From contig JBDRLP010000027.1 in assembly GCA_043812975.1 (NCBI GenBank), positions 64,001-128,000 of the forward strand: a stretch of 64,000 bases of DNA, in the 5' to 3' direction. Of this stretch, positions 1 through 56,191 are shown in pieces. The position numbers and the translations under genes were made by a program. This DNA comes from Candidatus Iainarchaeum sp. (GTDB lineage: Archaea > Iainarchaeota > Iainarchaeia > Iainarchaeales > Iainarchaeaceae). Every line of letters begins with the position of its first letter. Position 1 is the first letter of the stretch. The notes beneath the pieces were generated by a model. That model made no database searches and was not told the DNA's origin. It worked only from the letters and a program-made list of their open reading frames with translations.

Positions 1-194
1 TTCCCTTGTTCCATTTGTTTCTTTTTGAATAAAGTTCCTAAATCAGTTTGTCTCCAGTGTCTGTTTCCTCTTTTATTGTAAATTCTTTTTCCTGCTTTCT
101 GCAGTATCCATACAGGCGCATTGGTTAAACCTGAACCGATTTCTTTTCTTGCCGAAATCAAAAATTCTTTTTCTTCTTCAGTTTTTCTTCCCAT
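1..194 (-). CDS. rpl39e: 50S ribosomal protein L39e (3' end runs off the window)
   Basis: Manual translation MGRKTEEEKEFLISARKEIGSGLTNAPVWILQKAGKRIYNKRGNRHWRQTDLG has the L39e-type P.W...RHWR signature; conserved position after rps19e and PDCD5. Confidence 0.8.
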   Translation of the reverse strand, partial: MGRKTEEEKEFLISARKEIGSGLTNAPVWILQKAGKRIYNKRGNRHWRQTDLGTLFKKKQMEQG

Positions 195-199
195 AAAAA

Positions 200-514
200 T
201 CACTTTCTTGTAATGTTAATGTCCCTTCGAGTGTTCAATTGTCTTAAAATTTCCTTCAATTGTTCTTCGTTTAATTTTCCCTGCACCATTCCTTTTTGCA
301 TCAAACCCATGATTGCTTGAAATGCTCTGGTGTAAAGTTCCTTGTTAACAAGCCTTACATTGCTCAGCCTTTGTTTTGCCTCCTCTGTTAAGAGGCTTTT
401 CAAGACGCTTTGCATTTTGGCTTCCATTTCCAAGGATTGTTTTTCTTCCTCCTGTTGTTCTAAATATTTTTGTTTTAATTCTTCAAGCTTTTTTTCCTTC
501 AGGTCTTGGCTCAT
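200..514 (-). CDS. PDCD5-like dsDNA-binding protein
   Basis: LLTEEAKQRLSNVRLV motif and C-terminal INITRK; start moved to MSQDLK at 514; typical position downstream of rps19e. Confidence 0.88.
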   Translation of the reverse strand: MSQDLKEKKLEELKQKYLEQQEEEKQSLEMEAKMQSVLKSLLTEEAKQRLSNVRLVNKELYTRAFQAIMGLMQKGMVQGKLNEEQLKEILRQLNTRRDINITRK

Positions 515-1112
515 GCTTTTCCCCTTTAGGTTGTTCTTTTTTTTCTTTTGGAGCTTCTTTAGCTTCCTGTTTTTTTTCTTTCTGCAATTCTGCATTTTCT
601 TTCTGCACTTGAGCTTTCTTTTCATCTAATCTTTTTTTCATATTTGCTTCTATCCGATTCATTCTTTCCTGTTTTGCCATTAATTTTTTCTTATTGATTT
701 CATCAACCACTTTCTGAACATCTTTTGATTTTGCGTAAAGCAGTTTTTCTCCTAGGCCTGTTACTATTCTTCCTTTCTTATCTTTCTTAAGCAAACCTTG
801 TTTTTCAAGCTGCTGTAAACATACTCTGATAACTTTTCCTGATGCTTTTCTTTTTGCTTCAGGTTTAACTCCTCTGTTTTTTCTTCCGCCGTAATAGGTT
901 CTAAGGCTTCCTGTTCCTGTTGAACCGTGTTTATAAATCTGGTAGAGAATGCTTGCGTTTCTCACATAAAACCAATCAGGATTGTTTGGAGTTCTTTCTT
1001 TATGCGCCCCTGTTTTTATATAAGAGAATAGCTCTGGCTGTTGAATTTTGCCTTTTAGTTCTTTGGCAACTTCTTCTATAAGCATTCCTGCCGGCACGTC
1101 AAATATACCCAT
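483..1112 (-). CDS. rps19e: 30S ribosomal protein S19e with long charged C-terminal tail
   Basis: KTGAHKER..PDWFYVRNAS, YGGRKNRG and ASGKVIRVCLQQLE motifs. Confidence 0.96.
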   Translation of the reverse strand: MGIFDVPAGMLIEEVAKELKGKIQQPELFSYIKTGAHKERTPNNPDWFYVRNASILYQIYKHGSTGTGSLRTYYGGRKNRGVKPEAKRKASGKVIRVCLQQLEKQGLLKKDKKGRIVTGLGEKLLYAKSKDVQKVVDEINKKKLMAKQERMNRIEANMKKRLDEKKAQVQKENAELQKEKKQEAKEAPKEKKEQPKGEKHEPRPEGKKA

Positions 1113-1174
1113 CAGCGGACACCTCCGCTGGAGAGGTGTGCTGCCTTCGGCACCACGTACTCACTTACGTTCGT
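1113..1174. repeat. GC-rich pseudoknot-hairpin element, copy A
   Basis: cagcgg-acacct-ccgctg-gag-aggt, then a hairpin and ctcacttacgttcg; same layout as copies at 11901, 20030 and 33703. Confidence 0.65.
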
Positions 1175-1299
1175 TTTTGTCATAATCTTCACCTTTTTCC
1201 CTTTTCAGGGTTGTTTTGTTTCAATCCGCTTTTGCGGATAAACTTCTAAAATCAGAAGTAACAATAATTCGCCTTGAAAACCTTTAAAAAGCTTGGTTT

Positions 1300-1926
1300 T
1301 TATTCCACTACTGTCATTTTTACATTATCGAATATTGTCGAATCGGGCCCCCCATAGAATGTTGGAAATAACCAAACTCTTATGCAATTTGCTCCTGCCG
1401 GAACAAGGTAAGTGAACTCTTTATTTTGCCACGTATTATTGGTTGTGACTTCTCCAGCAGTCCCGGAGTTTCCTGCTCCGCAGCTTCTAACCATAACTAA
1501 TGCTTCTGTTGGCCCTCCTACAGTTCCTTGTTTATATGAAAAGTTTACTTTTACTGTTTTTCCATATAGTTCATTCAAATCATAATCAGTCAAAATAATC
1601 GCCCCGCCTGACGATATAGGAATAATTTCAACTGCATAGTTTCCGTATGGAGTATTAGTGCTCTGTACTGCCGTTACACCAGAGAGTAGGTCCCAGTAAT
1701 CCGGGTAAGTTGTAAGCGTCCAAGTTTCGAAGCTTGAGTTTTTAAGAAAATTTGTTGAAACTCCTGCGGCTTCTCGTATTTTGTCGAATGCTGTTGTTGC
1801 TGATGTTGTGACTTGTGTTTCTCCTGTTCCTGCTATGCTTAGTATTAGTGTGATTACGATTACGGCTACGAGTACTGCTCCGCCTATGAGTAGTAGGTAT
1901 TCTAGTGCTCCTTGTGCTTTTTGCAT
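1300..1926 (-). CDS. Class III signal peptide (type IV pilin-like) protein with CBM4/9-like C-terminal domain
   Basis: KAQ/GALEY followed by a hydrophobic helix; NFLKNSSFE...FDNVK beta-sandwich signature. Confidence 0.85.
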   Translation of the reverse strand: MQKAQGALEYLLLIGGAVLVAVIVITLILSIAGTGETQVTTSATTAFDKIREAAGVSTNFLKNSSFETWTLTTYPDYWDLLSGVTAVQSTNTPYGNYAVEIIPISSGGAIILTDYDLNELYGKTVKVNFSYKQGTVGGPTEALVMVRSCGAGNSGTAGEVTTNNTWQNKEFTYLVPAGANCIRVWLFPTFYGGPDSTIFDNVKMTVVE

Positions 1927-1966
1927 TTGATTTAGAATTGGTTTTTGAATTATTTATTGGTTTGGG
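1763..1966 (-). repeat. Shared pilin 5' module (leader + 55 codons), copy 1
   Basis: Near-identical to 2432-2633 and 3186-3380. Confidence 0.95.
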
Positions 1967-1971
1967 TTTTG

Positions 1972-2595
1972 TTATGTTTTAACTAATTTTATATCATCAA
2001 AATAAACAGTTCCGTTTGGAATTGTTGAACCTAAATTGTCCCACTTGATTTCCACAGTAATGGTTGCTCCTGCTGCTGTGCAGGTTACAGGCCCAGAACC
2101 ATCAGTCCATACATTTGGAAAGCTGCTGGTCATCCAGTCCAGAGATCTGTAACCCTCAGTACAGGAATTACTAAAAGCAATGCGTGCACTTCCGCCTATA
2201 ATATTTGGTTTGGTCCATCCTGATAAAGCATATGTATCTCCGGCTGTGACATTAAGTGTTTGGGATGCATAACCATAAGAAGAACCCGAACCATCATGAG
2301 TCATTTTCAAAGAACTGTTTCCAGTTCTGCGGTCATCTGTTGAAGAGGAAACACTTATTCCTCCTCCTGTAAGCCAACTACTCAATCCGCTTTCAAAGCT
2401 TCCGTTAGCCAAGAGATTATTGCTACCGCCGCCTGCGGCTTCTCGTATTTTGTCGAATGCTGTTGTTGCTGTTGTTGTTACTTGTGTTTCTCCTGTTCCT
2501 GCTATGCTTAGTATTAGTGTGATTACGATTACGGCTACGAGTACTGCTCCGCCGATTAAGAGTAGGTATTCTAGTGCTCCTTGTGCTTTTTGCAT
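1972..2595 (-). CDS. Class III signal peptide pilin-like protein with CBM4/9-like domain
   Basis: Same N-terminal 55 aa as its neighbours (one substitution); NLLANGSFESG...YFDDIKL. Confidence 0.85.
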   Translation of the reverse strand: MQKAQGALEYLLLIGGAVLVAVIVITLILSIAGTGETQVTTTATTAFDKIREAAGGGSNNLLANGSFESGLSSWLTGGGISVSSSTDDRRTGNSSLKMTHDGSGSSYGYASQTLNVTAGDTYALSGWTKPNIIGGSARIAFSNSCTEGYRSLDWMTSSFPNVWTDGSGPVTCTAAGATITVEIKWDNLGSTIPNGTVYFDDIKLVKT

Positions 2596-2633
2596 TTACT
2601 TAGAATTGGTTTTTGGATTATTTATTGGTTTGG
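2432..2633 (-). repeat. Shared pilin 5' module, copy 2
   Basis: Near-identical to 1763-1966. Confidence 0.95.
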
Positions 2634-2635
2634 AT

Positions 2636-3349
2636 TTAGGTCTCTGTTACTTTCACATTATCATAATCAATTGTTTGAGCACCGTAACTTAATAGTCCGA
2701 TTCCGCCTGTAGCATGTCCTGTAAAATTATCTTCTCCTGCATAAACCCCGTTTACATATAATTTTACGTTTTGTCCTATTACTACCAGTTTTATGCGGTA
2801 AGTTGTTCCGTTAACCCAAGCCGCTCCGGTTATTGGGTCAGTAAGATCCACAATTTGACCAGTACTCCAATCGTAGAGCCTCCAATAATTCCAGGCATAA
2901 TACCTGTACAACAACATCGAGTTTGTGCTTCCTGAAGTATTAGAATTTCTGTAAACTGCGCCCATATAACTTGTTCCTGAAACTGGGGTAAAATCAAATT
3001 CAAAAGTATGATCGCCATACGATCCTGTGAGATCCTGTGCAAATTTCCAACCGTCTGCTGTTGCAGCATGCCTGAACTTTCCTCCTGTAACACTCCAGAT
3101 TATATTTGACCCAGTAGTGGTCCAAACAGGATTAGATGTGTAATCCCCATCACTGAAATTATCAAAAAAACTTGCCGTTCCTCCCCCTGCGGCTTCTCGT
3201 ATTTTGTCGAATGCTGTTGTTGCTGATGTTGTGACTTGTGTTTCTCCTGTTCCTGCTATGCTTAGGATTAGTGTGATTACGATTACTGCTACGAGTACTG
3301 CTCCGCCTATGAGTAGTAGGTATTCTAGTGCTCCTTGTGCTTTTTGCAT
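2636..3349 (-). CDS. Class III signal peptide pilin-like protein with ConA/LamG-like beta-sandwich domain
   Basis: Same N-terminal 55 aa; FFDNFSDG...YRIKLVVIGQNVKLYVNG...GGIGL...YDNVKV pattern. Confidence 0.82.
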   Translation of the reverse strand: MQKAQGALEYLLLIGGAVLVAVIVITLILSIAGTGETQVTTSATTAFDKIREAAGGGTASFFDNFSDGDYTSNPVWTTTGSNIIWSVTGGKFRHAATADGWKFAQDLTGSYGDHTFEFDFTPVSGTSYMGAVYRNSNTSGSTNSMLLYRYYAWNYWRLYDWSTGQIVDLTDPITGAAWVNGTTYRIKLVVIGQNVKLYVNGVYAGEDNFTGHATGGIGLLSYGAQTIDYDNVKVTET

Positions 3350-3380
3350 TTACTTAGAATTGGTTTTTGGATTATTTATT
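3186..3380 (-). repeat. Shared pilin 5' module, copy 3
   Basis: Near-identical to 1763-1966. Confidence 0.95.
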
Positions 3381-3390
3381 CTTTTGGGTT

Positions 3391-3681
3391 TTATAAGTTT
3401 TTAATTTTCCTTTCAAATCCGCATTCTTTGCATTTTATTATTTTCATTGTTCCTGTTTTTTTTGTTTCAGAATTAGTTTTATTCAAAAAAGAATTGCATT
3501 TTTTGCAGTATTTTGTTTTTAGTTCGTTTGGAAATCTTACTCGGGTTTTTTTCCCAATTTCGATTGCAAGGCAAATATATCTTTTGCTTCGTTTCGGGTG
3601 CTTTTTCAGTTCTTTTTCAGCTAGTTCAAACAACCTGTAAATTCGTTCCAATCCGATTTGCTGCATTTTTGTGTGTTTCAT
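3391..3681 (-). CDS. rnp4: RNase P protein component 4 (Rpp21)
   Basis: ERIYRLFELA, RSKRYI, CKKC and CKECG zinc ligands. Confidence 0.92.
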   Translation of the reverse strand: MKHTKMQQIGLERIYRLFELAEKELKKHPKRSKRYICLAIEIGKKTRVRFPNELKTKYCKKCNSFLNKTNSETKKTGTMKIIKCKECGFERKIKNL

Positions 3682-3730
3682 ATTATTCAGCTTTATTTGA
3701 GAAATAGAATACTTTGGGTTTCAACAGTTA

Positions 3731-4429
3731 TTATTTTTTTTGGTTTTTGTACAATTCTTCAGAATCTTTGATAAGTTTCTTGAATAAAGTGTAGGTTTTT
3801 TCTGCATCTTTTTCATTGACAAGAAAATGCATATCAGGAGGGCTTGTTAATACTTCTATGCTTATTCCTTTTTTTGCAAGCCTGTTTGACATTTCAGCCA
3901 AAATCCCGTAAACAGAAAAAGATTCAAAAGGCATTCTAAAACTCACGAGTGCATTATCTTCTATTGAATAAGTTACATGTTCTTTTAATTCTGCCAAAAT
4001 TTCCTGTATTCTTTTTTTCTTTGTTATAACCATTATCTGGTCTGCTCCCTGAATTAACACTCTCATTTCACCCATTTTCCAGTCTTCGCTTGAAAATAGT
4101 TTTTCTATTCTGTTAATTACTTCAGGGTGCTTTTTGAACTGCACATAACACATATTGTCCTGCAGCATTACTTCAGAATTTGCAAAAGTTTCAAGGTAAG
4201 TAGCATCGGCTTCAACAGGTTTCATTTCATCAGCATATCTTTTGATTGCAACTATTACTGATTCTTCATGAAGCTCTTTTTCTAATTTGGTTTCAAGCTC
4301 GGGAATAATTTTTCTTGCTAAAGCAGAATAATTAATCACTCCTTCGCCTAACGAGTTTTTTATGTGAGGTTGCGATTCAATTTCTCTCCGTACAGCTTCA
4401 GATAAAGAATGGCTGTTATGATTAGGCAT
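3731..4429 (-). CDS. ACT-domain protein with N-terminal HTH-like region
   Basis: GVINYSALAR..IVAIKRY N-terminus and ACT-like GILAEMSNRLAKKGISI. Confidence 0.75.
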   Translation of the reverse strand: MPNHNSHSLSEAVRREIESQPHIKNSLGEGVINYSALARKIIPELETKLEKELHEESVIVAIKRYADEMKPVEADATYLETFANSEVMLQDNMCYVQFKKHPEVINRIEKLFSSEDWKMGEMRVLIQGADQIMVITKKKRIQEILAELKEHVTYSIEDNALVSFRMPFESFSVYGILAEMSNRLAKKGISIEVLTSPPDMHFLVNEKDAEKTYTLFKKLIKDSEELYKNQKK

Positions 4430-4675
4430 AAATAAATATTTTAGAACAAAACATATAAAAATATTACATTATTTTTAAATTTTGTTAAATTCTGGCCATT
4501 TTTGGCCAAAAGTGTTAAATTTCATGGTTTTATGTTTTATTTTTGATTATTTTTAATTTTTGTTCCTGTTTTTTGGAAAAAACGCCTTAAAATGCCTTAA
4601 ATCTGGTAATACTGCCATTTTCTGGTCGCCAGCTTTATTAATAAAGAAGGGGGCAATGTGATTGGTGTTTTGTTT

Positions 4676-4795
4676 ATGATTGGAAAAATAATAAGACAAA
4701 ATAGAAGAAGTTTCAATCGCGAAGAGGGAGAATTAAGAATCCAAATTGATGGCGAACCTTTTCCTGCTAGGGTAAGATTTCCTAAACGGAGGTGA
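4676..4795 (+). CDS. Possible 39-aa small protein
   Basis: MIGKIIRQNRRSFNREEGELRIQIDGEPFPARVRFPKRR; preceded by tttattaa and ggtg, followed by a hairpin. Confidence 0.35.
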   Translation: MIGKIIRQNRRSFNREEGELRIQIDGEPFPARVRFPKRR

Positions 4796-4872
4796 CTGAG
4801 GATAGGGGGGATGGGATTAATTTAGTTTAAAACAAAAAAATTCTAAAAAAGGGGGGTGTTTATGATGAAAAC

Positions 4873-4889
4873 CGGGGCTTCGGCCCCGC
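4873..4889 (+). terminator. GC hairpin with cUUCGg loop
   Basis: cggggc-ttcg-gccccg between the small ORF and the 3' end of tRNA-Gly. Confidence 0.35.
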
Positions 4890-4968
4890 TCATAAACCAA
4901 AAATCTGATTCTTATCTGATTCTTAATTCAAGTTTAAAAATTCAGGTTTTAAAGGTCAAGGTTAAGTA

Positions 4969-5041
4969 TGCAGCCACGGGGATTCGAACCCCGGCCAAGA
5001 GCTTGGAAGGCTCTGATGCTAAACCACTACACCATGGCTGC
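4969..5041 (-). tRNA. tRNA-Gly(TCC)
   Basis: Cloverleaf gcagcca/tggctgc, anticodon loop cttccaa, GGTTCGAATCC T-arm. Confidence 0.96.
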
Positions 5042-5218
5042 TTTGATAAATTCTTTGTGAGTTGGCACTTTTCCAGTTTTTTTAAAAATCTGGTATTTTA
5101 AGGTGTGCTTAATATTGCTTGGTTTAATTATCTTAAAAAAGGTATCCAATTGTCCTTGATCGTAAATATAAACGGTGTGAACCGTTATCGATTAAAATAA
5201 ACTGCTTCTTTATTTATC

Positions 5219-5851
5219 ATGGAAAAAGGTTTTTGGATTGTGTGGGACGGCATTGACGGTTCAGGAAAAGGCACGGTAATTCTTGAAATTAAAAAATTCC
5301 TTATAAAAAAAGGAATTCCAGAAAACCAAATTTTGGTTACAGCTGAACCCACTAAGGGTTTTTATGGTAAAAAAGTAAGAGAGCTCCTTAATACTCATGT
5401 TAATCCTGATGTTAATGCTCAGCAATTTTTGGATCTTTATGTTGCTGACAGAGAAGAACATCTTGGAAAAGAAATAATGCCTGCTCTGAAAGAAGGAAAA
5501 ATAATTCTCTGTGACCGTTACAAGTACAGTACTTTTGTTTATCAATTACTCCAAGGCATAGAGTTAGAAAAAATAATCGAATTTCACAAGGAAATGCTGG
5601 TTCCTGATTTAATTTTAATTTTAGACCTTCCGGTTGATGTTGCTTTACAAAGAATCGACTCTGATTCAAAAAGATCAGAAAAAGAAGTTTTTGAAAAAAA
5701 AGAATTTCTTGAAAAAGTCCGTCAGGGGTTCCTTTCATTAAAAGAAATTTTTCCTGAAGAAAACATTCGTATAGTTGATTCATCCAAAAACATCGGGGAA
5801 GTAACAAAGGAAACAGCTGATATTTTATGGAACAAGATAAAGGATTTATAG
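5219..5851 (+). CDS. tmk: Thymidylate kinase
   Basis: DGIDGSGKGT P-loop, CDRY motif, ADR..H. Confidence 0.95.
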   Translation: MEKGFWIVWDGIDGSGKGTVILEIKKFLIKKGIPENQILVTAEPTKGFYGKKVRELLNTHVNPDVNAQQFLDLYVADREEHLGKEIMPALKEGKIILCDRYKYSTFVYQLLQGIELEKIIEFHKEMLVPDLILILDLPVDVALQRIDSDSKRSEKEVFEKKEFLEKVRQGFLSLKEIFPEENIRIVDSSKNIGEVTKETADILWNKIKDL

Positions 5852-9213: not shown

Positions 9214-9777
9214 CTAATCAAACTTTACTTTAACATTTTCTTTTGCAGCTTCTTCAATTTCGAAGTAATCTCGTTTTCCAAAACCGAAAAGTGAAGCTAT
9301 AATGTTGCTTGGTAGTGTTTCTGTTTTAGTGTTGTACTTCAGAACTTCGTCATTGTAAAATTGTCTTGTGTAGGCAATTTTTGATTCGATTCCTGCTAGT
9401 TCTTCCTGAAGCATTAGGAAATTTTTATTTGCTTTCAAATCAGGGTAAGCTTCTGAAACAGCAAACAAAGACTTCAAAGTACTGGACAAAAAGTTTTCTG
9501 CTTCTGCCTGTGCCTTTACTCCTTTTGCTTTTGTTATTGCTGCTCTCGCTTCTGTAACCTGTTTGAATGTCCCTTTTTCGTGCTTAGCATATCCTTTTAC
9601 TGTTTCAACAAGGTTAGGCACTAAGTCAAACCTTTTTTTTAGCTGTACATCTATCTGGCTCCAAGCATTATCAATTCTGTTCTTCAGCTGAACAAAACCA
9701 TTGTATGCAAAAACAAACCAGATTGCTGCAATTATGCCTACTATTACGATTGCTCCTCCAATTAATTCTAATGTCAT
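9214..9777 (-). CDS. lemA: LemA family protein
   Basis: [29 protein letters not shown]; typical lemA-htpX pair. Confidence 0.96.
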
Positions 9778-9858
9778 AAGTGAAAACCTCCAACAAAATT
9801 GGTTCGAAAGATTATAAATAGCTTAGGGTATGAGTTTTTAGAAGTAGCTTTGGAGGGG

Positions 9859-10704
9859 TTATAATTCGCTTCCGCCAGTTGTTCTCAAGTATCTTTGATA
9901 CGCTTCCCAGATTTTTATTGCTTCTTCAACAGAGTATTTTTTCGCATTTTTTGATTTTTGGCTTTTAACTGCGGCTTCAATAGCTTCTTCTATTGATTTT
10001 CCTGGCTCATTTCTTTTAATTATTCTGCCAATTATATCCGCTTCATTAAACGTAAGCCCTGTCCCTTGTTTAACTTCTTCTCTAATAAAGTTTAATGCAA
10101 TAAAATTTATGTTTGTAATTAACCAACCACGTAGTTGTGCTTTTTTTTCAGGATCAAACCTTGCAAATATTGATGCTAATCTTGCATTAACATAACTACT
10201 GAAATCCCTTGTCCTTTCTCCAAAAAAATTGTGCCTCTTACTTGCTTCAAATATTGCTTTTTTAATTATTCCTGTACTTTGTTGCATCAATTGTTCTTGA
10301 GCTTTAGTCAAACGTATTTCTCTATTAATTTTTGGAAGTGTTCCTTCCTTTCTCATTCGATGTTTGTAAGTGCCAACATTAGCGGTGCTGGTTTCAACTC
10401 CATTCTCTCTTAAAATATTTACTATTTCTTCAGGTGTTTTGTTTTGATTGTAAAAAATTGTTCTTCTTATTATTGCATTTCTCGAATTTAATTCATCAGC
10501 TTTAATTATTTTTGGAAGTATTCCGTCTTTTCTCATTTTTGATTTTCTAGTGCCAACAGTTTTGGGAGAAATTCTAATTCCTTGTTTTGCCAGAATAGCT
10601 ACAATTTGTTGACGTGTTTTTACTTGATTTCTAGAAATTGTTCTTTTGATTTTGGCTTGTTTTGAATCCAATCTTACTACAGGTTTGGGTTTTGTTTTTG
10701 CCAT
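9859..10704 (-). CDS. Basic protein with two repeated HTH-like units and a sigma70-region-2-like segment
   Basis: Duplicated IV.IL...G...S...VGT.K..MRK.G.LPKI; RFDPEKKAQLRGWL..NI. Confidence 0.6.
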   Translation of the reverse strand: MAKTKPKPVVRLDSKQAKIKRTISRNQVKTRQQIVAILAKQGIRISPKTVGTRKSKMRKDGILPKIIKADELNSRNAIIRRTIFYNQNKTPEEIVNILRENGVETSTANVGTYKHRMRKEGTLPKINREIRLTKAQEQLMQQSTGIIKKAIFEASKRHNFFGERTRDFSSYVNARLASIFARFDPEKKAQLRGWLITNINFIALNFIREEVKQGTGLTFNEADIIGRIIKRNEPGKSIEEAIEAAVKSQKSKNAKKYSVEEAIKIWEAYQRYLRTTGGSEL

Positions 10705-10762
10705 TAAAAGATTAGTTATTTGAATCAATAAATAAGTTACTTTTTAGTATAAAAATTAGAAG

Positions 10763-10782
10763 TGGGCCAGGGAGGACTCGAA
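10763..10782 (-). repeat. 20-bp direct duplication of the tRNA-Val 3' end (att-like)
   Basis: tgggccagggaggactcgaa occurs at 10763-10782 and 10848-10867. Confidence 0.9.
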
Positions 10783-10847
10783 GAAACTTTTGCCAAAAGT
10801 TTCATCAAAACGTACGAAGCCTGCATTACCCATCCTTCGGATGGGTA

Positions 10848-10920
10848 TGGGCCAGGGAGGACTCGAACCTCCGATCCTCTCCGTGTAAAGGAGATGTCAT
10901 AGCCACTAGACCACAAGCCC
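10848..10920 (-). tRNA. tRNA-Val(TAC)
   Basis: tctcc-tttacac-ggaga anticodon arm, GGTTCGAGTCC; one U-U mismatch in the acceptor stem. Confidence 0.92.
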
Positions 10921-10923
10921 GAC

Positions 10924-10967
10924 CTTTTCTTTTTCGAGAAAAAGAAAAGCTCGACCAAAAGAAAAAG
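10924..10967. repeat. Hairpin + mirror purine tail (triplex-geometry) element T1
   Basis: cttttctttttc-ga-gaaaaagaaaag-ctcgacc-aaaagaaaaag. Confidence 0.75.
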
Positions 10968-11043
10968 CTCTTTCCTACTGTAAAGAAAGAATCCTTTTGG
11001 TTACTATGGAAATTCGTTTGAAAACTATTAAAAAGCTTCCAAT

Positions 11044-11301
11044 TCATTTTGTTAGGAATTTTTCTATGTAATCTGATTTGCTTAGCACAGATATTACTCT
11101 TTTTGCCCTTACAAATACGAATGCTGCGGCAATTAGGGCCAACATTGCACTTACATACCGTAAAAATGCCTCAAAACTGTTTCCCTGGATTATTTGGATT
11201 GTAAATCCTTCTATAAATGCTGTAATGAATAATCCTATTGCCACTATTGTAACTACTGAAAAGAAAAATAGTTCAAAAATGTTCCTTGTTAGTATTTTCA
11301 T
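11044..11301 (-). CDS. Small two-TM membrane protein
   Basis: Two hydrophobic segments. Confidence 0.65.
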   Translation of the reverse strand: MKILTRNIFELFFFSVVTIVAIGLFITAFIEGFTIQIIQGNSFEAFLRYVSAMLALIAAAFVFVRAKRVISVLSKSDYIEKFLTK

Positions 11302-11337
11302 AATACTCCCTATTGCTTTTCAAATATAATAAGTTAA

Positions 11338-11856
11338 TTGTTCTGTTTTTTGCTTGACGGAACGTTTATATATAAATTAATTGTATTAATTTCAGGTGTA
11401 ATTGTGAGAAGACTTATTTATCTTAAAATTGCGGGCAAAGATGTGCATTTACCTAAACTTATAGGTTCTTTCATTATTTTTGCAGCATTTTTGTTATTTG
11501 TTCAGGCTTCAGCTTCTATGTTTGATTCTTGGGATTCAGCTAAGGAAGTTGACAGGTGTTTACAATTAGCTGCTGCTAATGAAGCTAGAGTAGAACCTGA
11601 TGAAAGCATTTATCCTGAATGCAGGGAAATGGCAAGAGATTTTTTAGGAATTTCAGTAAGATCTGATCAGGATGGTTTAAGTCTGAGACAATTCTGGGGC
11701 TCCTTGTTAGGGCCGATAGCTTCAGTGTTAATCTGGTTAGCTTTGTTATTTGTTGGTTTAATTCTTTACAGAAGCGGAGAACTTGTTCTTCCTATTGATG
11801 AAACAATCAGGGAAGTTCCTGATGTAACAAGAAGTTTCAAAAAAAGAAAGAAATAA
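11338..11856 (+). CDS. Two-TM membrane protein (true start probably GTG near 11404)
   Basis: Two TM helices flanking a Cys-pair loop; basic tail. Confidence 0.7.
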   Translation: MFCFLLDGTFIYKLIVLISGVIVRRLIYLKIAGKDVHLPKLIGSFIIFAAFLLFVQASASMFDSWDSAKEVDRCLQLAAANEARVEPDESIYPECREMARDFLGISVRSDQDGLSLRQFWGSLLGPIASVLIWLALLFVGLILYRSGELVLPIDETIREVPDVTRSFKKRKK

Positions 11857-11900
11857 TTTCTATTTTTAAAAAAAAGAAAATTTAGACAACAACTACAATG

Positions 11901-11961
11901 CGCCGTCTGCTCACGGCGGTAGAGCGTCCTGTTTTCAACAGGACTGGCTCACTTCGTTCGC
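11901..11961. repeat. GC-rich pseudoknot-hairpin element, copy B
   Basis: cgccgt-ctgctc-acggcg-gta-gagc-gtcctgtt-ttc-aacaggac, then gctcacttcgttcgc. Confidence 0.75.
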
Positions 11962-11963
11962 AA

Positions 11964-13373
11964 TTATAACGCTGTTGCCCTTACTTTATCATTAATTTCT
12001 ATCTTTCCTTTTTTTGCACCAATAACAAATTTGGTTTCTGCTTTTTCTGCAGCAGCCATAAGTCTTTTTGTTATTACTCCGTCAAATACTATTGCGTTTA
12101 CTTTCTTTTTGGTTTTTCCAAGTTCTGTTACAAGATCCTTAACCTTGACTTCTTTTACTACTGTATTTTTCTCGTCAAGCATTTTTGCTTTCATTGAACC
12201 TTTTAGTTCATCCAGAATTGGTTTGAATGTTTCTGTTTCTTCTTTAGTTAAAACAGAAATAAACCTAGGTCTCATTGGTCTTGGAGTAGGGGTTCTTGAA
12301 GTTCTTCGATCATCAGTTCTATCGTTTCTTTCATTCCTGTCCCAGTTATTTCTTGGAGGTCCTCTTCCCATAGGTGGTCTTTCGTTTCGCATAGGAGGTC
12401 CTCTTGAAGGTCTGTCCCTATAACTGTTTTCCCTTTGAGGTGCATTTTCTCTTGAGTAGTTATTTTCTCGCGGATAACTTTGTTCTCTTGGATAGTTATT
12501 TTCTCTTGGAGAGGTTTCTCGCGAATAATTATTTCTTTGAGGTTTTCTTTCTCCAAATTCTTCACTCGTTTCTAATTTTCTTTTTAGTGATTGGAGTATT
12601 TCTTTTCTTGTTAGTTCCTCAACTTCTTTTCCATCAGGGGCTTTTGCAATGTAAGCTACTTTTGCAATCTGAATAAGTTTTCTTGCGTTTAAGATTCCGC
12701 CTCTGTCCCCATCAATAAATAATGTTATTTCTTTGGTTTTGCTTAGTTCAGTTATTGTCGGAGAGATATTAGATCCATTCATTCCTATTACATTCTTTAT
12801 CTGATTTTTAAGCATATTAATAACATCAGCTCTTCCTTCGACAACTATTATTTCTTTACTTATTTCAATATCAGGTCCTGCTGGTAACTTATCCGGGCCA
12901 TAGCTTGATATGTCGGATGCTCTTACTTTTTCTCTTAATTCATCGCCAAGCATTTGTGTATCAGGTTTTGACTGGTTCATCATTTTTTTCAAAAGTTCCT
13001 GAGCTCTGGTTTTGATTTCATCTCTTTTGTTTGTTCTGGTATCTTCCATACTAATTATTTCAAATTTTGCTTCACTTGGACCTACTTTATCCACGCTTTC
13101 AATTCCTGCTGCCAATAAACTTGTTTCTGCCATGTCCATTGAAGAGGGAACTAGTACTTCTCCTTTGGTTCTTCCCATTGCAGTTTTGTGTTCAATTTCT
13201 ATTCTTCCGAGCTTTCCATTTTTCTGAAGCTCTTTAAGATCCATTTCGTCTCCAAGTAAACCTTCACTTTGTCCAAAAATTGCGCCAATTATATCTGGTT
13301 TGTCAACTATACCATCAATCTCAAATTTTAGTTTGATAACGTATTTTACTGTATTTACGTATGTTTTTGCCAT
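11964..13373 (-). CDS. dnaG: Archaeal DnaG (TOPRIM; exosome-associated)
   Basis: GAIFGQSEGLLG, IIVVEGRADV, DGDRGG, DGKEVEEL. Confidence 0.96.
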   Translation of the reverse strand: MAKTYVNTVKYVIKLKFEIDGIVDKPDIIGAIFGQSEGLLGDEMDLKELQKNGKLGRIEIEHKTAMGRTKGEVLVPSSMDMAETSLLAAGIESVDKVGPSEAKFEIISMEDTRTNKRDEIKTRAQELLKKMMNQSKPDTQMLGDELREKVRASDISSYGPDKLPAGPDIEISKEIIVVEGRADVINMLKNQIKNVIGMNGSNISPTITELSKTKEITLFIDGDRGGILNARKLIQIAKVAYIAKAPDGKEVEELTRKEILQSLKRKLETSEEFGERKPQRNNYSRETSPRENNYPREQSYPRENNYSRENAPQRENSYRDRPSRGPPMRNERPPMGRGPPRNNWDRNERNDRTDDRRTSRTPTPRPMRPRFISVLTKEETETFKPILDELKGSMKAKMLDEKNTVVKEVKVKDLVTELGKTKKKVNAIVFDGVITKRLMAAAEKAETKFVIGAKKGKIEINDKVRATAL

Positions 13374-29231: not shown

Positions 29232-30728
29232 ATGCTCCATAATACGCGATTATTCCTGAGCAAGGTTAACTATAACTCTGAGAAAAGACAGATTACTGTA
29301 GAGTTTTCAAAGAAAAATCAGAAATCTTCAAAGAAGTACTCATTTTTTCCAAAAATGTATCTTTCTCTGAAAAAAATTTCTGAAAAACATTTACTTGATG
29401 CTTTAGCTGATTATGATGTAAGAAAATTAAAAATAGATTTTAAAGAAAATACAGCAACTATTTTTGCAGCAACATTTTCTGATTTGAAGAAAGTAAATAA
29501 TCTTCTGAATAATTTTTTTAATTTACATTCAAATTTAATAGAACCTGAAAGGCAATTTCTGCTGGAAAAGAACTGGAGTTATTTTGATTTTTTTGATTTT
29601 TCTTATTCAGAACCCCAACAAATCCACACAACTGAATTTCCTGATGTTTCAATGGACTTCCTTTCAGATTCTTTCAAAGAAACTATTGCTTCTTTATTGT
29701 TGAACAACAGGTCTCTTGCTAAAGAAACAATTGAAAAAATCGTTTTTTCCAAGCTGTTAAGAATTCCTTTAATAGGCCGAGAAGAAGATAAGTCTCTTGA
29801 GGAAATTTTTATTGAAAATATTTTTTTCCTTAGCGAAAAACCAATTTCTATAGGGGGGTATAGAAACAAATCTTATTTTAGGCAAATCCATAAAAAATCA
29901 GTTATAGATTTTTCAAAAATGGTTTCAGTAATGGCTTCAAAGCCGTTCAATAATCTTGGTTTTGAAACCATTAATTGCAGCTGTTGCAAACCATGGGATA
30001 AAGAAGCAAAAAACATTTTGCCTTCTTCTTTAGTCAAGGTTAATTTTTTGAGGGAAGCTTTTTACTTTGACTCTGTTTCAAGTAACTGGGCTGATGCTTA
30101 TCATTTTTCTAATAAGGAAATGCAACAGCGTGAAAAAAGAAAAAGGGAATATTTTTTGGATTTTTATCCTTCAGGCCCGTTTTCAAGAAACTCGTCTGAA
30201 AATATACTTTTAGCTGATGCATTAAATCTTGAACAAAAAGGATTGGTTAAAATAGTTTCTCATGAAAATCCTTCCTGGTTTTGCCTGAAAAAGGAAAGTG
30301 CTTTTTCTTCAGAAGTCAATCGTTTGTATGAATCTCTCATTACTCTTAATTCAGTTGTTGAGAAGGAAAGTAATTCGGTTGTTGCTTCTGCTGGTTTGTT
30401 TTTCTCTCAGTCCCTTGAATCTAGTCCTGGGCATCATTATAGAAAAATTTTAGATAAAACAACTTCTAGGCTTTTAGCTTCTTTTCCAGGGTTGCTTACA
30501 AATTCTTCCGGAAGGTTTTTTGATAAGAATTTTGCAATTGCTTTGGAAGCTATTAATAGCCTTATTTTGAAGGATTTTGAAGAAATTGCCAAAAACTCCA
30601 AAACAAGGGTTACTTTCAAGGATTCTATTGCTTTGGTTGATTCTTCTTCTTTCATGTCTGCCTCTAAAGAGTTCAGAGACCTCTATAAGGTTGACAAACG
30701 CTTGTTGAGCGTCTCCAAAAGCTTTTGA
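29232..30728 (+). CDS. Highly degenerate family B DNA polymerase-like protein
   Basis: VIDFSKM...NNLGFETINCSCC resembles PolB motif A plus the PolB2-type NisPETxxCxCC; no DTD motif C seen. Confidence 0.55.
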   Translation: MLHNTRLFLSKVNYNSEKRQITVEFSKKNQKSSKKYSFFPKMYLSLKKISEKHLLDALADYDVRKLKIDFKENTATIFAATFSDLKKVNNLLNNFFNLHSNLIEPERQFLLEKNWSYFDFFDFSYSEPQQIHTTEFPDVSMDFLSDSFKETIASLLLNNRSLAKETIEKIVFSKLLRIPLIGREEDKSLEEIFIENIFFLSEKPISIGGYRNKSYFRQIHKKSVIDFSKMVSVMASKPFNNLGFETINCSCCKPWDKEAKNILPSSLVKVNFLREAFYFDSVSSNWADAYHFSNKEMQQREKRKREYFLDFYPSGPFSRNSSENILLADALNLEQKGLVKIVSHENPSWFCLKKESAFSSEVNRLYESLITLNSVVEKESNSVVASAGLFFSQSLESSPGHHYRKILDKTTSRLLASFPGLLTNSSGRFFDKNFAIALEAINSLILKDFEEIAKNSKTRVTFKDSIALVDSSSFMSASKEFRDLYKVDKRLLSVSKSF

Positions 30729-30792
30729 ATCAGGTTTTTAATCATTTGCACGGAGAAAATAGTAATAAATCCTGATTTTTAAGTGATTTTAT

Positions 30793-30999
30793 ATGACTAT
30801 TTTAACAAGATTTGAAATAACTCGTCTTATAAGCGCTAGGGCATTACAGCTTTCGCTTGGCGCTCCAGGAATGATTAAGGCTTCAAAAGAATCTAGCATG
30901 ATTGATATTGCTAGAGAAGAGTTTGATAAGAAAGTTATTCCTATTTCAGTTTTAAGGGAATTTCCTGACGGAAGAATTGAAAAAATTGAGGTGGATTAG
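30793..30999 (+). CDS. rpo6: RNA polymerase subunit K (Rpo6)
   Basis: LTRFEITRLISARALQLSLGAP. Confidence 0.96.
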   Translation: MTILTRFEITRLISARALQLSLGAPGMIKASKESSMIDIAREEFDKKVIPISVLREFPDGRIEKIEVD

Positions 31000-31000
31000 A

Positions 31001-31192
31001 TTGGGTAAAGCAGTCCCTCAGAATATTAAAAGTAAGGCAAATATACTTTTGCAAACTTATCCTAATGATGTGCCAAATGATTTTGATTCTATTAAGAAAT
31101 TTATTGATACTTTTAAAATGCCGATGAGTAAATCACAGAGAAATCTTGTTGCTGGTTTTTTGGCTAGAAAAAAGTCTCAGTTAAAAGCCTAG
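31001..31192 (+). CDS. rps17e: 30S ribosomal protein S17e
   Basis: TTG start MGKAVP..IK, NDFD..KK, SK..RN.VAGF. Confidence 0.85.
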   Translation: MGKAVPQNIKSKANILLQTYPNDVPNDFDSIKKFIDTFKMPMSKSQRNLVAGFLARKKSQLKA

Positions 31193-53950: not shown

Positions 53951-54418
53951 TTATATAAATCTTACATTAATTCCAGAAGGACTAATTCCTGATTCTTTGT
54001 CCACAGTAACTATTATCAATCTAGAATTGGGTTCTGCATCATCGGGAATTGGTTCAAAACAATCAAATTCCGCCCCTACATCTATTGTGTTTGTACAACT
54101 TCCTGAAACACAATAGGGTATATTAATTTGATTATGAGAAAGTGCAGAGTATGTTGTTTCTAACAAATTTCCTGAACAGTTTATTGTTGCTTCTGCAGGA
54201 ACAACAATGTTAATTGTTTGTTTTGTTCCTTCTCCGGATAATGCTACAAATTGTATTGTGTCTGCTAATTTTTCTGCAGAAACTTTAAGCTTGCTCAGAT
54301 TGGCAACATCTTTTGTTGAATTTGATGCCAATTCAGCACTTGGTTGTACAAGAGCTACAATAAACATTATAGCAATGAGTATTGTAAAAAGAAATTCAAC
54401 CGATGCTTGTCCTTTCAT
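53951..54418 (-). CDS. Pilin-like protein
   Basis: MKGQ/ASVEF class III signal. Confidence 0.82.
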   Translation of the reverse strand: MKGQASVEFLFTILIAIMFIVALVQPSAELASNSTKDVANLSKLKVSAEKLADTIQFVALSGEGTKQTINIVVPAEATINCSGNLLETTYSALSHNQINIPYCVSGSCTNTIDVGAEFDCFEPIPDDAEPNSRLIIVTVDKESGISPSGINVRFI

Positions 54419-55548
54419 CCCAGTATTAGATTCCATAAAAAATCTCCTGTTAATTGAAGTGCGATATATGCGATGAAGATTGCTGGAACAAACGCCATTG
54501 TTTTTCTTACTTTAATTTCTTTTGGCGCTAATCCTTTTTTTGCTTTTTCTTTAAGCATTGCAACATCTTCTTCGGTAAAGCCTCCTGCTTGTGATGGACC
54601 CCCAATTATTTTTCCTTTAATTTGGAAGTCTTCCAATGAGCTTTCTATTTTATTATTCATTAAGTTCTTTATAACTCTTTTTATTGACGGTCCTTCCACT
54701 AATTCAATTTTTTCCTTCTTCTGAACCATATAAACATCAGATATCATCCCTTCTTCTAAATCACTAATTTTTATTGTTTCTTTGAAAGCATATTCTCTTG
54801 TTTCATTATACAATTTCCAGAACCAGTAACCAATTAACAAGGGGAAGAAAACAAAAGCAGCATCCATTATGAATATCTCATAATTCAGAACCAAACCAAC
54901 AATACCAACACTTATAACAAATAAATATCTTATTTTTCTTGGCAAAGCAGAGATTATTATTAATGCAGGGAATATCAAAAACTCAGTAACTGCCAATTGT
55001 TCAATACTTAATTTCAAACCTGCGATAAGAATCCCCAAACCTAAAAGGTTCTTTGATTTATCCTTCATTATTTCAAAAGTTTTTCCTATTATTTCAGGGT
55101 GTTTTCTCAAAGCAGTAAAGCTCATTAAAATTCCTAATGGGAAAACAGCAAGAGCAGAGTAAAGTATTAAGCTGAAAGAAAAAATCGGGAGTTCTATTGT
55201 AGTAAAAGGCCAGTTAGTTAATTGAATAGCATTTGCAAGTACTGCATAATTTACTGGATTAACAATTGCTAAAGCGGTTACTAGTTTTACATCTCCTCCG
55301 GCCCATACTCCTAATTTCCATAATAAGTAGGATACTCCGAATGCTATTGCTCCTGCGCCTATTGCAAACAATAATGGTTCTATTGATTCAGCTTTTATAC
55401 TTTCAATTATTTTAAGCCCCAACCCTGCTCCTATTAGTGTGTAGGTTAGTTTGTTGTAAACCATCCGTTCCTTAAGGTCTGTATAAGTAGCAATTAGTAG
55501 AGCTATGATTGATAAGAAAAAGTAAAGCAGGATGATCACAAGAATCAT
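54415..55548 (-). CDS. Prepilin peptidase (A24, EppA/FlaK-like)
   Basis: YTDLKER, WAGGDVKL, LEEGMI, MAFVPAI. Confidence 0.92.
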   Translation of the reverse strand: MILVIILLYFFLSIIALLIATYTDLKERMVYNKLTYTLIGAGLGLKIIESIKAESIEPLLFAIGAGAIAFGVSYLLWKLGVWAGGDVKLVTALAIVNPVNYAVLANAIQLTNWPFTTIELPIFSFSLILYSALAVFPLGILMSFTALRKHPEIIGKTFEIMKDKSKNLLGLGILIAGLKLSIEQLAVTEFLIFPALIIISALPRKIRYLFVISVGIVGLVLNYEIFIMDAAFVFFPLLIGYWFWKLYNETREYAFKETIKISDLEEGMISDVYMVQKKEKIELVEGPSIKRVIKNLMNNKIESSLEDFQIKGKIIGGPSQAGGFTEEDVAMLKEKAKKGLAPKEIKVRKTMAFVPAIFIAYIALQLTGDFLWNLILG

Positions 55549-55730: not shown

Positions 55731-55997
55731 TTACGACGCTGTTGCAGTACAGTTTGGGTATGTTCCGCCGCATGTATAGGTAATCTGGTCAACTAGTACG
55801 GTACCGCCGCAAGCTCTTGGATTAGCCAAAGCTGCTTGTTGTGTACACAATGATGTAGCTGCTGATAACCCTGTTTGTGTTCCTCCGGTATCTGCAATAC
55901 TTAACAGCAGTGTGATAACTATGACTGCGACCAGTACTGCTCCTCCAATTAAGAGAAGATATTCTAGTGCTCCTTGTCCTTTTTTATCCAAAATCAT
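55731..55997 (-). CDS. Probable major pilin
   Basis: KKGQ/GALEYLLLIGGAVLVAVIVITL; strong SD ggaggt. Confidence 0.88.
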   Translation of the reverse strand: MILDKKGQGALEYLLLIGGAVLVAVIVITLLLSIADTGGTQTGLSAATSLCTQQAALANPRACGGTVLVDQITYTCGGTYPNCTATAS

Positions 55998-56026: not shown

Positions 56027-56191
56027 TTATGTGCTTGTGGACTCAATGGCCTCATTAATCCGAGTCCCGCCTTCTTCTACTACATTTTGTTTTATTCCGA
56101 GCATTATAAATGTTACAACTAATATTACTGCTCCAAGTAAAACTAATATTTCTACTGAAGTTTGTCCTTTTTCTTCTTGTAACAATTTCAT
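56027..56191 (-). CDS. Small pilin (54 aa)
   Basis: Manual ORF MKLLQEEKGQTSVEILVLLGAVILVV... Confidence 0.85.
   Translation of the reverse strand: MKLLQEEKGQTSVEILVLLGAVILVVTFIMLGIKQNVVEEGGTRINEAIESTST

Follow-up and report, generated by a model that had tools for sequence, protein, structure and literature searches.

The window examined here is a stretch of 64,000 nucleotides from contig JBDRLP010000027.1 of Candidatus Iainarchaeum sp. (positions 64,001 to 128,000), and the element in question is a tandem array of three pilin-adhesin genes (c1, c2 and c3, all minus-strand) flanked by the S19e gene (483-1112) and the gene for the RNase P Rpr2 subunit (3391-3681), in whose constant 5' modules every codon after the start codon ends in A or C. 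The host genome, referred to below as G000, comprises 1.24 Mb in 68 contigs with 35% G+C, and related contigs are titled Candidatus Iainarchaeum or Diapherotrites (DPANN). Gene c1 (1300..1926) encodes a class III signal-peptide pilin of 208 residues whose C-terminal domain has no Pfam match, c2 (1972..2595) a pilin of 207 residues with a CBM_4_9 carbohydrate-binding domain (PF02018, E=1.4e-8), and c3 (2636..3349) a pilin of 237 residues with a 3-keto-disaccharide-hydrolase/ConA-like domain (PF06439), whose 26.4 bits fall just below the cut-off of 26.8. The class III signal-peptide model PF04021 recognizes all three with 25.9-26.0 bits (26 for c1) over a cut-off of 23.7, and in their translations four residues precede QGALE and a hydrophobic stretch, with a predicted cleavage between them and an arrangement that we take to be of the Epd-like type, with Gln at +1 and Glu at +5.

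The three genes have in common a 212-nt repeat (family D1, 86-100% identity), comprising 42 nt upstream of the ATG and about 170 nt of coding sequence. Its coding part gives the modules (copy 1 at 1762..1926, that is, codons 1-55 of c1; copy 2 at 2428..2595; copy 3 at 3188..3349) and its upstream part a conserved leader, located at 1927..1968 for c1 (with no G and no Shine-Dalgarno, SD, motif), at 2596..2637 for c2, where it abuts the stop codon of c3 with no T run between the genes, and at 3350..3391 for c3, directly after the Rpr2 gene. Each leader contains a TATA-like box read from the sequence as a putative promoter: AATAAATAAT at 1949..1958 (-32 to -23 of the ATG), and its counterparts at 2617..2626 (-31 to -22) and 3371..3380. 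A promoter-like motif of this kind (a TAAATAAT-type box, then AAAAACCAATTC) is common to the array and to a pilin-like gene on contig C48 of the same genome. Other signals in the surroundings are a sense-strand run of seven T at 3164-3170 (minus strand; codons 60-62 of c3, about 15 nt past the module end), which in c1 corresponds to TTTTCTT and has no similar counterpart in c2, a T-rich, terminator-like stretch at about 1275-1290, after the c1 stop, and a G+C-rich segment with inverted repeats at 1113-1165, within the spacer that separates S19e from c1 and is elsewhere A+T-rich. Oligo-T tracts can stop transcription in archaea, and an attenuation of transcription after the module is conceivable from the T run in c3.

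The rule on third bases is absolute in the array. All 54 codons of c1 after the ATG (codons 2-55), 55 of 55 in c2 (codons 2-56) and 53 of 53 in c3 (codons 2-54) end in A (41-42 cases) or C (12-14 cases) and none in G; in c1 there are 42 A and 12 C, and the last codon of the run is GGA at 1762-1764. In the remainder of the genes, A+C at third positions amounts to 83 of 153 in c1, 74 of 151 in c2 and 86 of 183 in c3 (54%, 49% and 47%), and the bias ends 0-2 codons from the edge of the homology block. Module copy 1 as a whole (165 nt) consists of 69 A, 40 C, 33 G and 23 T, with no CA repeat as such. When the copies are compared over codons 2-54, six third-position differences appear (codons 12, 13, 14, 21, 28 and 39), all of which are A<->C swaps, besides one synonymous first-position C/T difference (CTC/TTA) and one Ser/Thr replacement (codon 42). 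The leaders follow the same trend, with an A+C content of 0.79-0.81 and 0-2 G each, and, when 1118 gene upstream regions (mean 0.495, sd 0.10) are ranked by it, they take the first (copy 1, 0.81), second and joint second places, the leader copies differing at keto bases too. The initial annotation, which described copy 1 from its letters, had claimed just this: 54 consecutive A/C-ending codons, A<->C swaps among the copies and an A/C-rich leader; on all three points it was right, and its coordinates are correct within one base.

It had further contrasted the module with the major pilin gene of the same window, said to use T- and G-ending codons freely for the same peptide, and this is indeed the case. 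Some 52 kb from the array lie a fourth pilin gene (55731..55997, minus strand), which encodes the same helix peptide behind a GGAGG SD motif with ordinary codons (37 of 54 A/C-ending; 34.9 bits with PF04021), an A24-family prepilin peptidase with an archaeal C-terminal domain (54415..55548, minus strand; PF01478, E=3.8e-13, and PF06819, Arc_PepC) and a pilus platform gene with a T2SSF domain match (56188-57141). As judged from its domains, this peptidase would process the pilins of the array.

How exceptional is such a block in this genome? Third positions genome-wide are A.38, T.35, G.14 and C.13, and given the c1 peptide and the genomic codon usage, 28.5 of 54 A/C endings are expected, the probability of all being A/C having a log10 of -15.85, that is, about 1e-16 for each copy. 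Scanned in six frames, the 68 contigs yield A/C runs of 55, 54 and 53 codons, the next longest having 29, and the first 54 codons of 1130 open reading frames (ORFs; crude calls, taken as the longest ATG ORFs of at least 90 residues, just as promoter classes were simple motif matches) have a mean of 27.1 A/C endings (sd 6.0), with 48 as the best value outside the array. Similar runs at gene starts, which the initial annotation had named among the findings that would count against its claim, are thus not common. Among the other two-letter classes, the longest run in a called reading frame is an A/T run of 41 codons, expected from the A+T richness, while a C/T run of 75 codons and G/T runs of 44-55 lie in antisense or non-called frames, those of 53-55 codons being the complement of the three modules themselves. 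Other repeats of the genome, 86-90% identical and up to 4.5 kb long, are free of an A+C skew; the large duplicates of 1.6-4.5 kb at 152-4616 and 7880-12359 of contig C5, and those shared by C54/C55 and C23/C5, are of ordinary strand composition. An assembly artefact is ruled out, because the rule recurs in independent genomes and metagenome contigs, and so is GC-biased gene conversion, given third bases with 41-42 A, 12-14 C and no G. The A/C-only rule on silent sites is real, highly non-random and evolutionarily maintained.

The codons with which the rule is obeyed are not those that this genome prefers. The reference set of 32 ribosomal-protein and EF-1alpha genes, picked out on contig C1 by their Pfam matches, shifts in the same direction, its third-position A+C being 0.61 versus 0.51 genome-wide (Mann-Whitney P=1e-11) and C being favoured over T in two-fold boxes, and these genes favour TTA/CTT, AGA, GTT and ATT. 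The modules use CTA/CTC, CGA, GCC, GTA/GTC and ATA/ATC, with no GTT or ATT, and several of these codons are rare in the reference genes (CTA 0.07, CTC 0.05, CGA 0.02, GCC 0.04, GTC 0.08); the module set is therefore not the translationally optimal set of the genome, as this comparison and the lack of a gene-wide bias indicate. (The same contig C1 holds, at 29364-33083, corresponding to 9364-13083 of locus L032, an EF-2/EF-G homologue with an intein and a LAGLIDADG domain, Pfam Intein_splicing and LAGLIDADG_3.) Leucine is especially informative, since it is written CTA or CTC in 7 of 7 cases in c1 and c3 and in 6 of 7 in c2, and TTA is avoided in spite of ending in A and of its 70% share among A/C-ending Leu codons in the genome as a whole (56% in the 60 genes richest in A/C), so that T is shunned at free first codon positions as well. 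The descriptor that fits best is hence a maximization of A+C on the sense strand. As for the tRNAs, ARAGORN reported 22 genes in G000 (20 with introns allowed; about 33 distinct anticodons) and, within this incomplete census, did not detect a tRNA-Leu(UAG); among those reported are a tRNA-Ile(TAT) and an odd tRNA-Asp whose anticodon is ATC, and several carry introns. Taken together, the non-preferred codons, the avoidance of TTA, the unbiased C-terminal halves and the A+C-rich non-coding leader support a constraint that acts on the nucleic acid and not as ordinary codon preference, in agreement with the initial annotation, which had proposed selection on the nucleic acid itself.

The history of the rule can be followed in relatives. 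A protein search of 60 related genomes and scans of metagenome and genome contigs (the former carry no taxon assignment) gave about 200 pilin N-termini, with a mean of about 31-32 A/C endings in 54. The extreme counts come from a single family, whose members share their first residues, lack an SD-like motif and have a TATA-like box some 22-32 nt ahead of the ATG; most related pilins do have an SD-like motif upstream, unlike c1-c3. At the Rpr2-S19e locus, which in G000 holds three genes with 53-54 of 54 endings within the rule (98-100%), a genome of the same genus (G005, S19e 73% identical) has two genes with 50 of 54 each, a form repeated in contig L035, and metagenome contig L037 has two genes with 51 and 52; single genes are found in the closest relative by S19e (G003, 87% identical), with 36 of 54, and in contig L036 (Rpr2, one pilin, S19e), with 42. 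Three multi-copy loci are thus set against two single-copy ones, from lineages that are few and related. Two more homologues (L033 and L034), alone within +/-1.5 kb and adjoined by neither S19e nor Rpr2, have 42 and 24 of 54. The expectation that homologous modules in relatives would share the bias is consequently borne out for the two-gene arrays of two lineages, and not for the two single-gene orthologues, in which the rule is relaxed.

The rule has also outlived changes in the peptide, since in G005 and L037 codons 29-55 encode a peptide other than that of G000 and still keep to A and C. Over the seven rule-keeping modules, nine codon columns that agree in residue and in their first two bases vary at the third, of which eight contain only A and C, one A, C and T, and none A/G or C/T. 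In neighbouring genes (S19e and Rpr2, plus an ACT-domain protein for G003), A<->C changes represent 6 of 95 synonymous third-base differences between G000 and G003, and 5 of 57 between G000 and G005, which gives a binomial P of 5e-9 for the eight columns of nine. The relaxed module of G003 differs from those of G000 mostly by transitions (A/G 7 and C/T 3, besides A/T 2 and A/C 5), and at several codons where G003 differs the outgroups side with G000, so that by parsimony, on few sequences, the rule looks ancestral in the genus and relaxed in G003. The first genes of G005 and L037 have orthologous C-termini (53% amino acid identity over 190 residues) with 51% and 54% A/C endings, against 93-94% in their modules; this contrast is stable between orthologues, so the difference within the gene is of long standing and has been maintained. 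Among 130 pilin genes, the A/C share of the module minus that of the rest has a mean of +0.06 (sd 0.13), compared with +0.40 to +0.51 in these arrays.

Beyond this genus, a wider and weaker form of the bias exists. When the DNA of 215 genomes of the phylum was searched, 105 of them had nucleotide matches to the helix-coding part; outside G000, these yielded 254 distinct helix segments (codons 2-30), 18 with at least 26 of 29 A/C endings and 7 with 29 of 29. The opposite, low-A/C tail is thin, a one-sidedness that fits a functional direction of the bias, and leucine in the A/C-high segments is again CTA (68) or CTC (22) more often than TTA (6). Most of these genes have a normal GGAGG-type SD motif and are usually duplicated pilins of the pilus locus, the divergent single pilins of the same loci having 12-21 of 29; in some short pilins 80-84% of all codons end in A or C, where the local baselines are 0.48-0.55. 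In several pairs the A/C run of one copy stops a few codons from the point where the paralogues diverge and that of the other copy continues, and over nine high pairs the end of the homology and the end of the run are only weakly linked (rho 0.38, P=0.12). Conversely, tandem arrays of other lineages have modules that are 93-99% identical and still only 23-35 of 54 A/C endings, and over 149 pairs the identity of the modules within a locus does not correlate with their A/C third-base content (Spearman 0.06). Nine loci of other archaeal lineages (L048, L050, L053, L054, L062, L064, L068, L109 and L130) consist of three or four SD-led pilins with modules of about 43-60 codons, 89-99% identical over 165 nt, followed by differing C-terminal parts, and their wobble bases are T-rich; a pilin array with a constant head and a variable tail is, in view of these, widespread and does not need the A/C rule. 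From the unbiased arrays and the SD-led biased pilins together it follows that neither tandem repetition nor the absence of an SD motif is sufficient for the bias. The arrays of the G000 type are the extreme of a broader pilin dialect.

The modules behave as units of concerted evolution, while what they are attached to turns over rapidly. The two modules of G005 are 98.8% identical in DNA, and the orthologous modules of G005 and L037 only 89-92%. Among ten genes compared, the C-terminal domains are homologous in only two pairs, and that of c3 matched nothing at more than 32% identity when 195 other genomes of the order were searched, so the Rpr2-S19e locus of this genus may be flagged as a site of fast turnover of adhesin cassettes. 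In a comparison with contigs from four DNA sequencing runs (short pieces only, with many bins uncovered), one low-depth metagenome contig of 377 nt (run X1) joins 2431 to 3186, skipping 754 nt, and so links the variable part of c2 to the leader next to the Rpr2 gene; its module differs by four bases, which are c2-type variants within the A/C rule, and one of its ends carries adapter-like letters. This contig weakly suggests a strain whose array lacks c3, and with it a variation in copy number.

One physical consequence of the rule concerns folding. As RNA, the 165-nt module has a minimum free energy of -15.2 kcal/mol, versus -37.8 +/- 4.7 for 60 recodings of the same peptide with genomic usage. 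When the wobble bases are restricted to two letters, A/C folds least (-17.7 kcal/mol), followed by A/G (-21.9), A/T (-34.1), C/T (-34.4), G/T (-41.5) and C/G (-71.0), and A wherever possible gives -12.2. Leader and module together (207 nt) fold at -17.6 kcal/mol (z=+1.4 versus shuffles), and the region from +1 to +165 lies in the least-structured 1-4% of 936 genes. The initial annotation had expected a structure-free A/C strand with a G/T-rich complement and had suggested folding both. As single-stranded DNA (ssDNA), both module strands do have little self-structure (-5.4 and -8.0 kcal/mol, versus -13.8 and -12.3 for the next 165 nt; the latter module value, that of the complementary strand, has z=+0.25); the antisense RNA of the module would fold well, at -41.6 kcal/mol.

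The explanation that we tentatively favour, at somewhat less than an even chance, is a purifying selection on the transcript that holds the silent positions. The block is the 5' unit of three paralogous pilin-adhesin genes of the Epd-like type and consists of the 42-nt leader and 55 codons, encoding a predicted 4-residue signal peptide, a mature hydrophobic helix starting with Q+1 and E+5 and a Thr/Gln/Ala-rich linker. Selection would act on the sense-strand nucleic acid, maximizing A+C and minimizing U and G, the selected molecule being most likely the transcript: the A/C wobble bases turn the G/U-rich coding of a hydrophobic helix into a weakly folding RNA, leave no AUG, GUG or UUG in any frame, and provide codons read only by Watson-Crick pairing at the wobble base. 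The payoff would be a better output of genes with no SD motif, whose transcripts are probably leaderless or else arise by read-through from the upstream copy. That RNA and not DNA is the target, that the transcripts are leaderless and start from the promoters described, and that translation benefits, is what we infer from this arrangement; c1-c3 have no SD-like motif upstream, and a similar TATA-like box stands at the same distance in relatives. The influence of the 5' coding sequence on expression, with weak folding and codon bias at the 5' ends of genes, is well established, which gives this explanation a good prior; the bias points the same way in many lineages, and this explanation alone easily fits the SD-led pilins that are biased gene-wide.

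A number of observations nonetheless weigh against selection on the transcript. Among 936 genes, the start windows (-30 to +50), with -5.8 to -8.1 kcal/mol, stand only at the 14th-35th percentile; a replacement of Leu CTA/CTC by TTA, of Arg CGA by AGA or of all wobble bases by A would lower the structure further; and in the whole mRNA the mean unpaired probability of the module is 0.53-0.58, versus 0.42-0.48 elsewhere. The idea of a structure-free strand hence holds inasmuch as the module folds far less than its recodings, and fails where the start window is ordinary, TTA would be looser still and the contrast within the mRNA is slight; in terms of these folding models, low structure is a real consequence of the rule and not obviously the quantity that is optimized. 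Moreover, genes of G000 with no SD motif and with a TATA-like box show no excess of A/C third bases after codon 10 (with the crude gene and promoter calls mentioned above), a single-copy pilin-like paralogue of 1179 codons (contig C48, about 2250-5830) has only 19 of 54 A/C endings despite the shared promoter motif, and SD-led pilins of other genera show the helix-only form, so the absence of an SD motif is not required. The relaxed counts of G003 and L036 (36 and 42 of 54), the orthologues that stand as single genes, are fitted at least as well by a process dependent on copy number. If the transcripts are leaderless, the A+C-rich leader falls outside the RNA, and compliance at 100% of 54 sites demands strong selection per site, in a genome whose ribosomal genes show weak codon selection only.

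A copy-number-dependent process of that sort, unlikely in our judgement but ranked directly after selection on the transcript, is strand-specific biased gene conversion among the modules through the mismatch endonuclease NucS/EndoMS. According to the portions of PMC8228993 that deal with it, this enzyme cleaves G-T, G-G and T-T mismatches, leaves A-C uncleaved and suppresses homeologous recombination. Heteroduplexes with G-T, G-G or T-T would be rejected and those with A-C passed, in such a way that keto-to-amino conversions pass and the reverse ones are blocked, and the free sites of the repeats would drift to A/C on one strand without any selection per site; all this needs a fixed polarity, with the donor sense strand paired to the recipient antisense strand, as could be set, for example, by the replication fork. 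G000 does encode a NucS_C homologue (contig C3, 31628-31960, 94.7 bits), and NucS was found in 32 of 41 related genomes searched, G000 included, as well as in 5 of 5 further genomes with A/C-high duplicated pilins. Conversion would also explain a good part of the pattern: the end of the bias at the edge of the homology block, its reach into the non-coding leader, its extreme form only at multi-copy loci with a relaxation in two independent single-copy orthologues, the persistence of A<->C differences with no transitions, the passage from Leu TTA to CTA, the full compliance, and modules that are more alike within G005 (98.8%) than between orthologues (about 90%). What speaks against it is the existence of tandem pairs with 88-99% identical helices and no A/C bias, also in genomes that have NucS (G037, G217 and G015), and of one biased genome in which no NucS was found (G034, 74% complete); across lineages, the association between NucS and the bias is mixed and not significant. 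Furthermore, some pilins are 70-84% A/C-ending well past any paralogous homology, the A/C run of G005 and L037 extends 3-11 codons past the identical block, the other repeats of G000 are unskewed, and keto polymorphisms occur in the leader. A fixed polarity of the strands is itself an assumption, and a random one would yield both tails, when only the A/C tail is heavy. That the rule is the footprint of such a previously undescribed process, with NucS vetoing the keto alleles on one strand, we regard as slightly more doubtful still.

Ordinary translational selection, rather improbable and placed next, would see in these pilins the highest-expressed genes of the cell, with NNA and NNC codons read in Watson-Crick mode by tRNAs with U34 and G34 and with accuracy favoured at conserved residues. 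The parallel shift of the ribosomal and EF genes agrees with it, as do the probable major pilins of other genera that are 80-84% A/C-ending gene-wide and the correlation between the A/C shares of the module and the rest of the gene (r=0.41 over the 130 pilin genes). It fails, however, to explain why the C-terminal 150-180 codons are at or below the baseline, and stably so between orthologues, why these arrays are such outliers in the difference between module and rest, why their Leu, Arg, Val and Ile codons are not those preferred by ribosomal genes, with TTA, A-ending and common, avoided, and why the rule holds in a non-conserved linker and in the leader; the tRNA-Leu(UAG) missing from the ARAGORN census would add to this, incomplete as that census is. 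Less probable again is the proposal of the initial annotation that the G/T-rich complement is selected as a substrate of the recombinase RadA; the module would then act as a homology arm or hotspot that serves to homogenize the copies and to swap the C-terminal cassettes. RecA, Rad51 and RadA prefer GT-rich ssDNA, with about 80% G+T in selected sequences. The concerted evolution of the modules, the turnover of the cassettes and the X1 contig with its putative change of copy number fit this, both strands are little structured as ssDNA, and the avoidance of TTA in favour of CTA as well as the relaxation at single-copy loci would be predicted. On the other hand, the complement reaches only 66% G+T (109 of 165), the maximum that the peptide allows and below those 80%, homogenized pilin arrays with no skew are common, the X1 contig is single, of low depth and with adapter-like letters at one end, and a benefit in evolvability seems too indirect to hold 54 silent sites against a mutation biased towards A+T and towards T at third positions. 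From the overall interpretation of the initial annotation, then, selection on the nucleic acid is retained, the structure-free strand is retained in part and the recombination hotspot is kept as an improbable reading. A strand-biased mutation with neither selection nor conversion (for example keto-to-amino transitions, G to A and T to C, on one strand repeatedly exposed in transcription or recombination) would give a sense strand rich in A and C, CTA from TTA and a non-coding skew, and it is nevertheless unlikely to a high degree, since its direction is opposite to the usual transcription-associated asymmetry, which enriches G+T on the coding strand, it does not account for a sharp edge within a single transcription unit or for C-terminal halves that are unbiased, and no comparable block exists elsewhere in the genome. 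The least credible of all is a constraint on the third positions from a gene or RNA that overlaps them in antisense: open frames of 49-90 codons do overlap each module and the antisense RNA would fold stably, but A/C-only wobble bases by themselves remove TAA and TGA from the antisense frame, in whose two-fold boxes A<->C swaps are non-synonymous. Antisense coding could be rejected, because differences silent in the pilin change the antisense peptide (D/V, MS/IK, S/R).

Selection on the transcript therefore remains ahead of conversion, ordinary translational selection and recombinase preference, in this order, with mutation bias and antisense constraint both unlikely. Whichever applies, silent-site constraint is usually weak and diffuse, and here some 54 consecutive silent sites are under an absolute two-base rule. 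A rule that survives the divergence of the peptide and decays in single copy offers a natural test to separate selection on the mRNA, selection for recombination and conversion bias, in hosts that are uncultured DPANN archaea and for which surface adhesins are probably central to their lifestyle. If selection on the transcript is the true cause, the module would represent a strong, SD-independent expression element in archaea; if NucS were, a new mechanism would be at hand, by which the specificity of a repair enzyme writes a strand-asymmetric dialect into repeated archaeal and actinobacterial genes.

How does this compare with known systems? In limited literature searches no published description was found of an A/C-only wobble rule or of a NucS-based strand-specific conversion, nor anything on such a rule in a search for codon usage in DPANN pilins or anything pertinent on RadA and GT-rich sequences. 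With biased gene conversion the array has in common a near-identical module in neighbouring genes and an abnormal silent composition confined to the shared block; unlike in the GC-biased form, it is A and C that are favoured, and on one strand, a strand asymmetry that a base-pair-symmetric conversion cannot give. It resembles the GT-rich pairing sequences of RecA, Rad51 and RadA and the Chi-type hotspots in that one strand is enriched in G+T and the module is a unit of concerted evolution, and differs from them by its G+T of only 66% and by the existence of other pilin arrays that are homogenized with no skew. As regards the proteins, the closest parallel is that of the adhesion pilins PilA1-PilA6 of Haloferax volcanii, whose H-domain is almost identical according to sections of PMC4371748 (and Esquivel et al. 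2013, cited there): both are sets of archaeal type IV pilin paralogues that have in common a conserved hydrophobic domain at the N-terminus, differ in their C-termini and are located away from the genes for pilus biosynthesis. Conservation in PilA1-PilA6 is described in those sections at the protein level, with no silent-site rule reported in them, and unlike those genes c1-c3 are in tandem, carry lectin/CBM-like domains and share promoter and leader. On the RNA side, CA repeats downstream of the start codon boost translation in E. coli, both leaderless and leadered (Martin-Farmer and Janssen 1999, as related in part of PMC9031893), and the module could be seen as analogous to these downstream enhancers, for it is an A/C-rich, weakly pairing sequence directly after the start codon of genes with no SD motif that are possibly leaderless. 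Enhancers of this type extend over about the first 10-20 codons, are bacterial and consist of statistical tendencies or engineered repeats. The pilin module, unlike them, follows an absolute rule over 53-55 codons plus the leader, is conserved between species within one gene family and has an unexceptional predicted accessibility of the start. The rule is best classed as a new and extreme case, in the pilin genes of archaea, of region-specific synonymous constraint.

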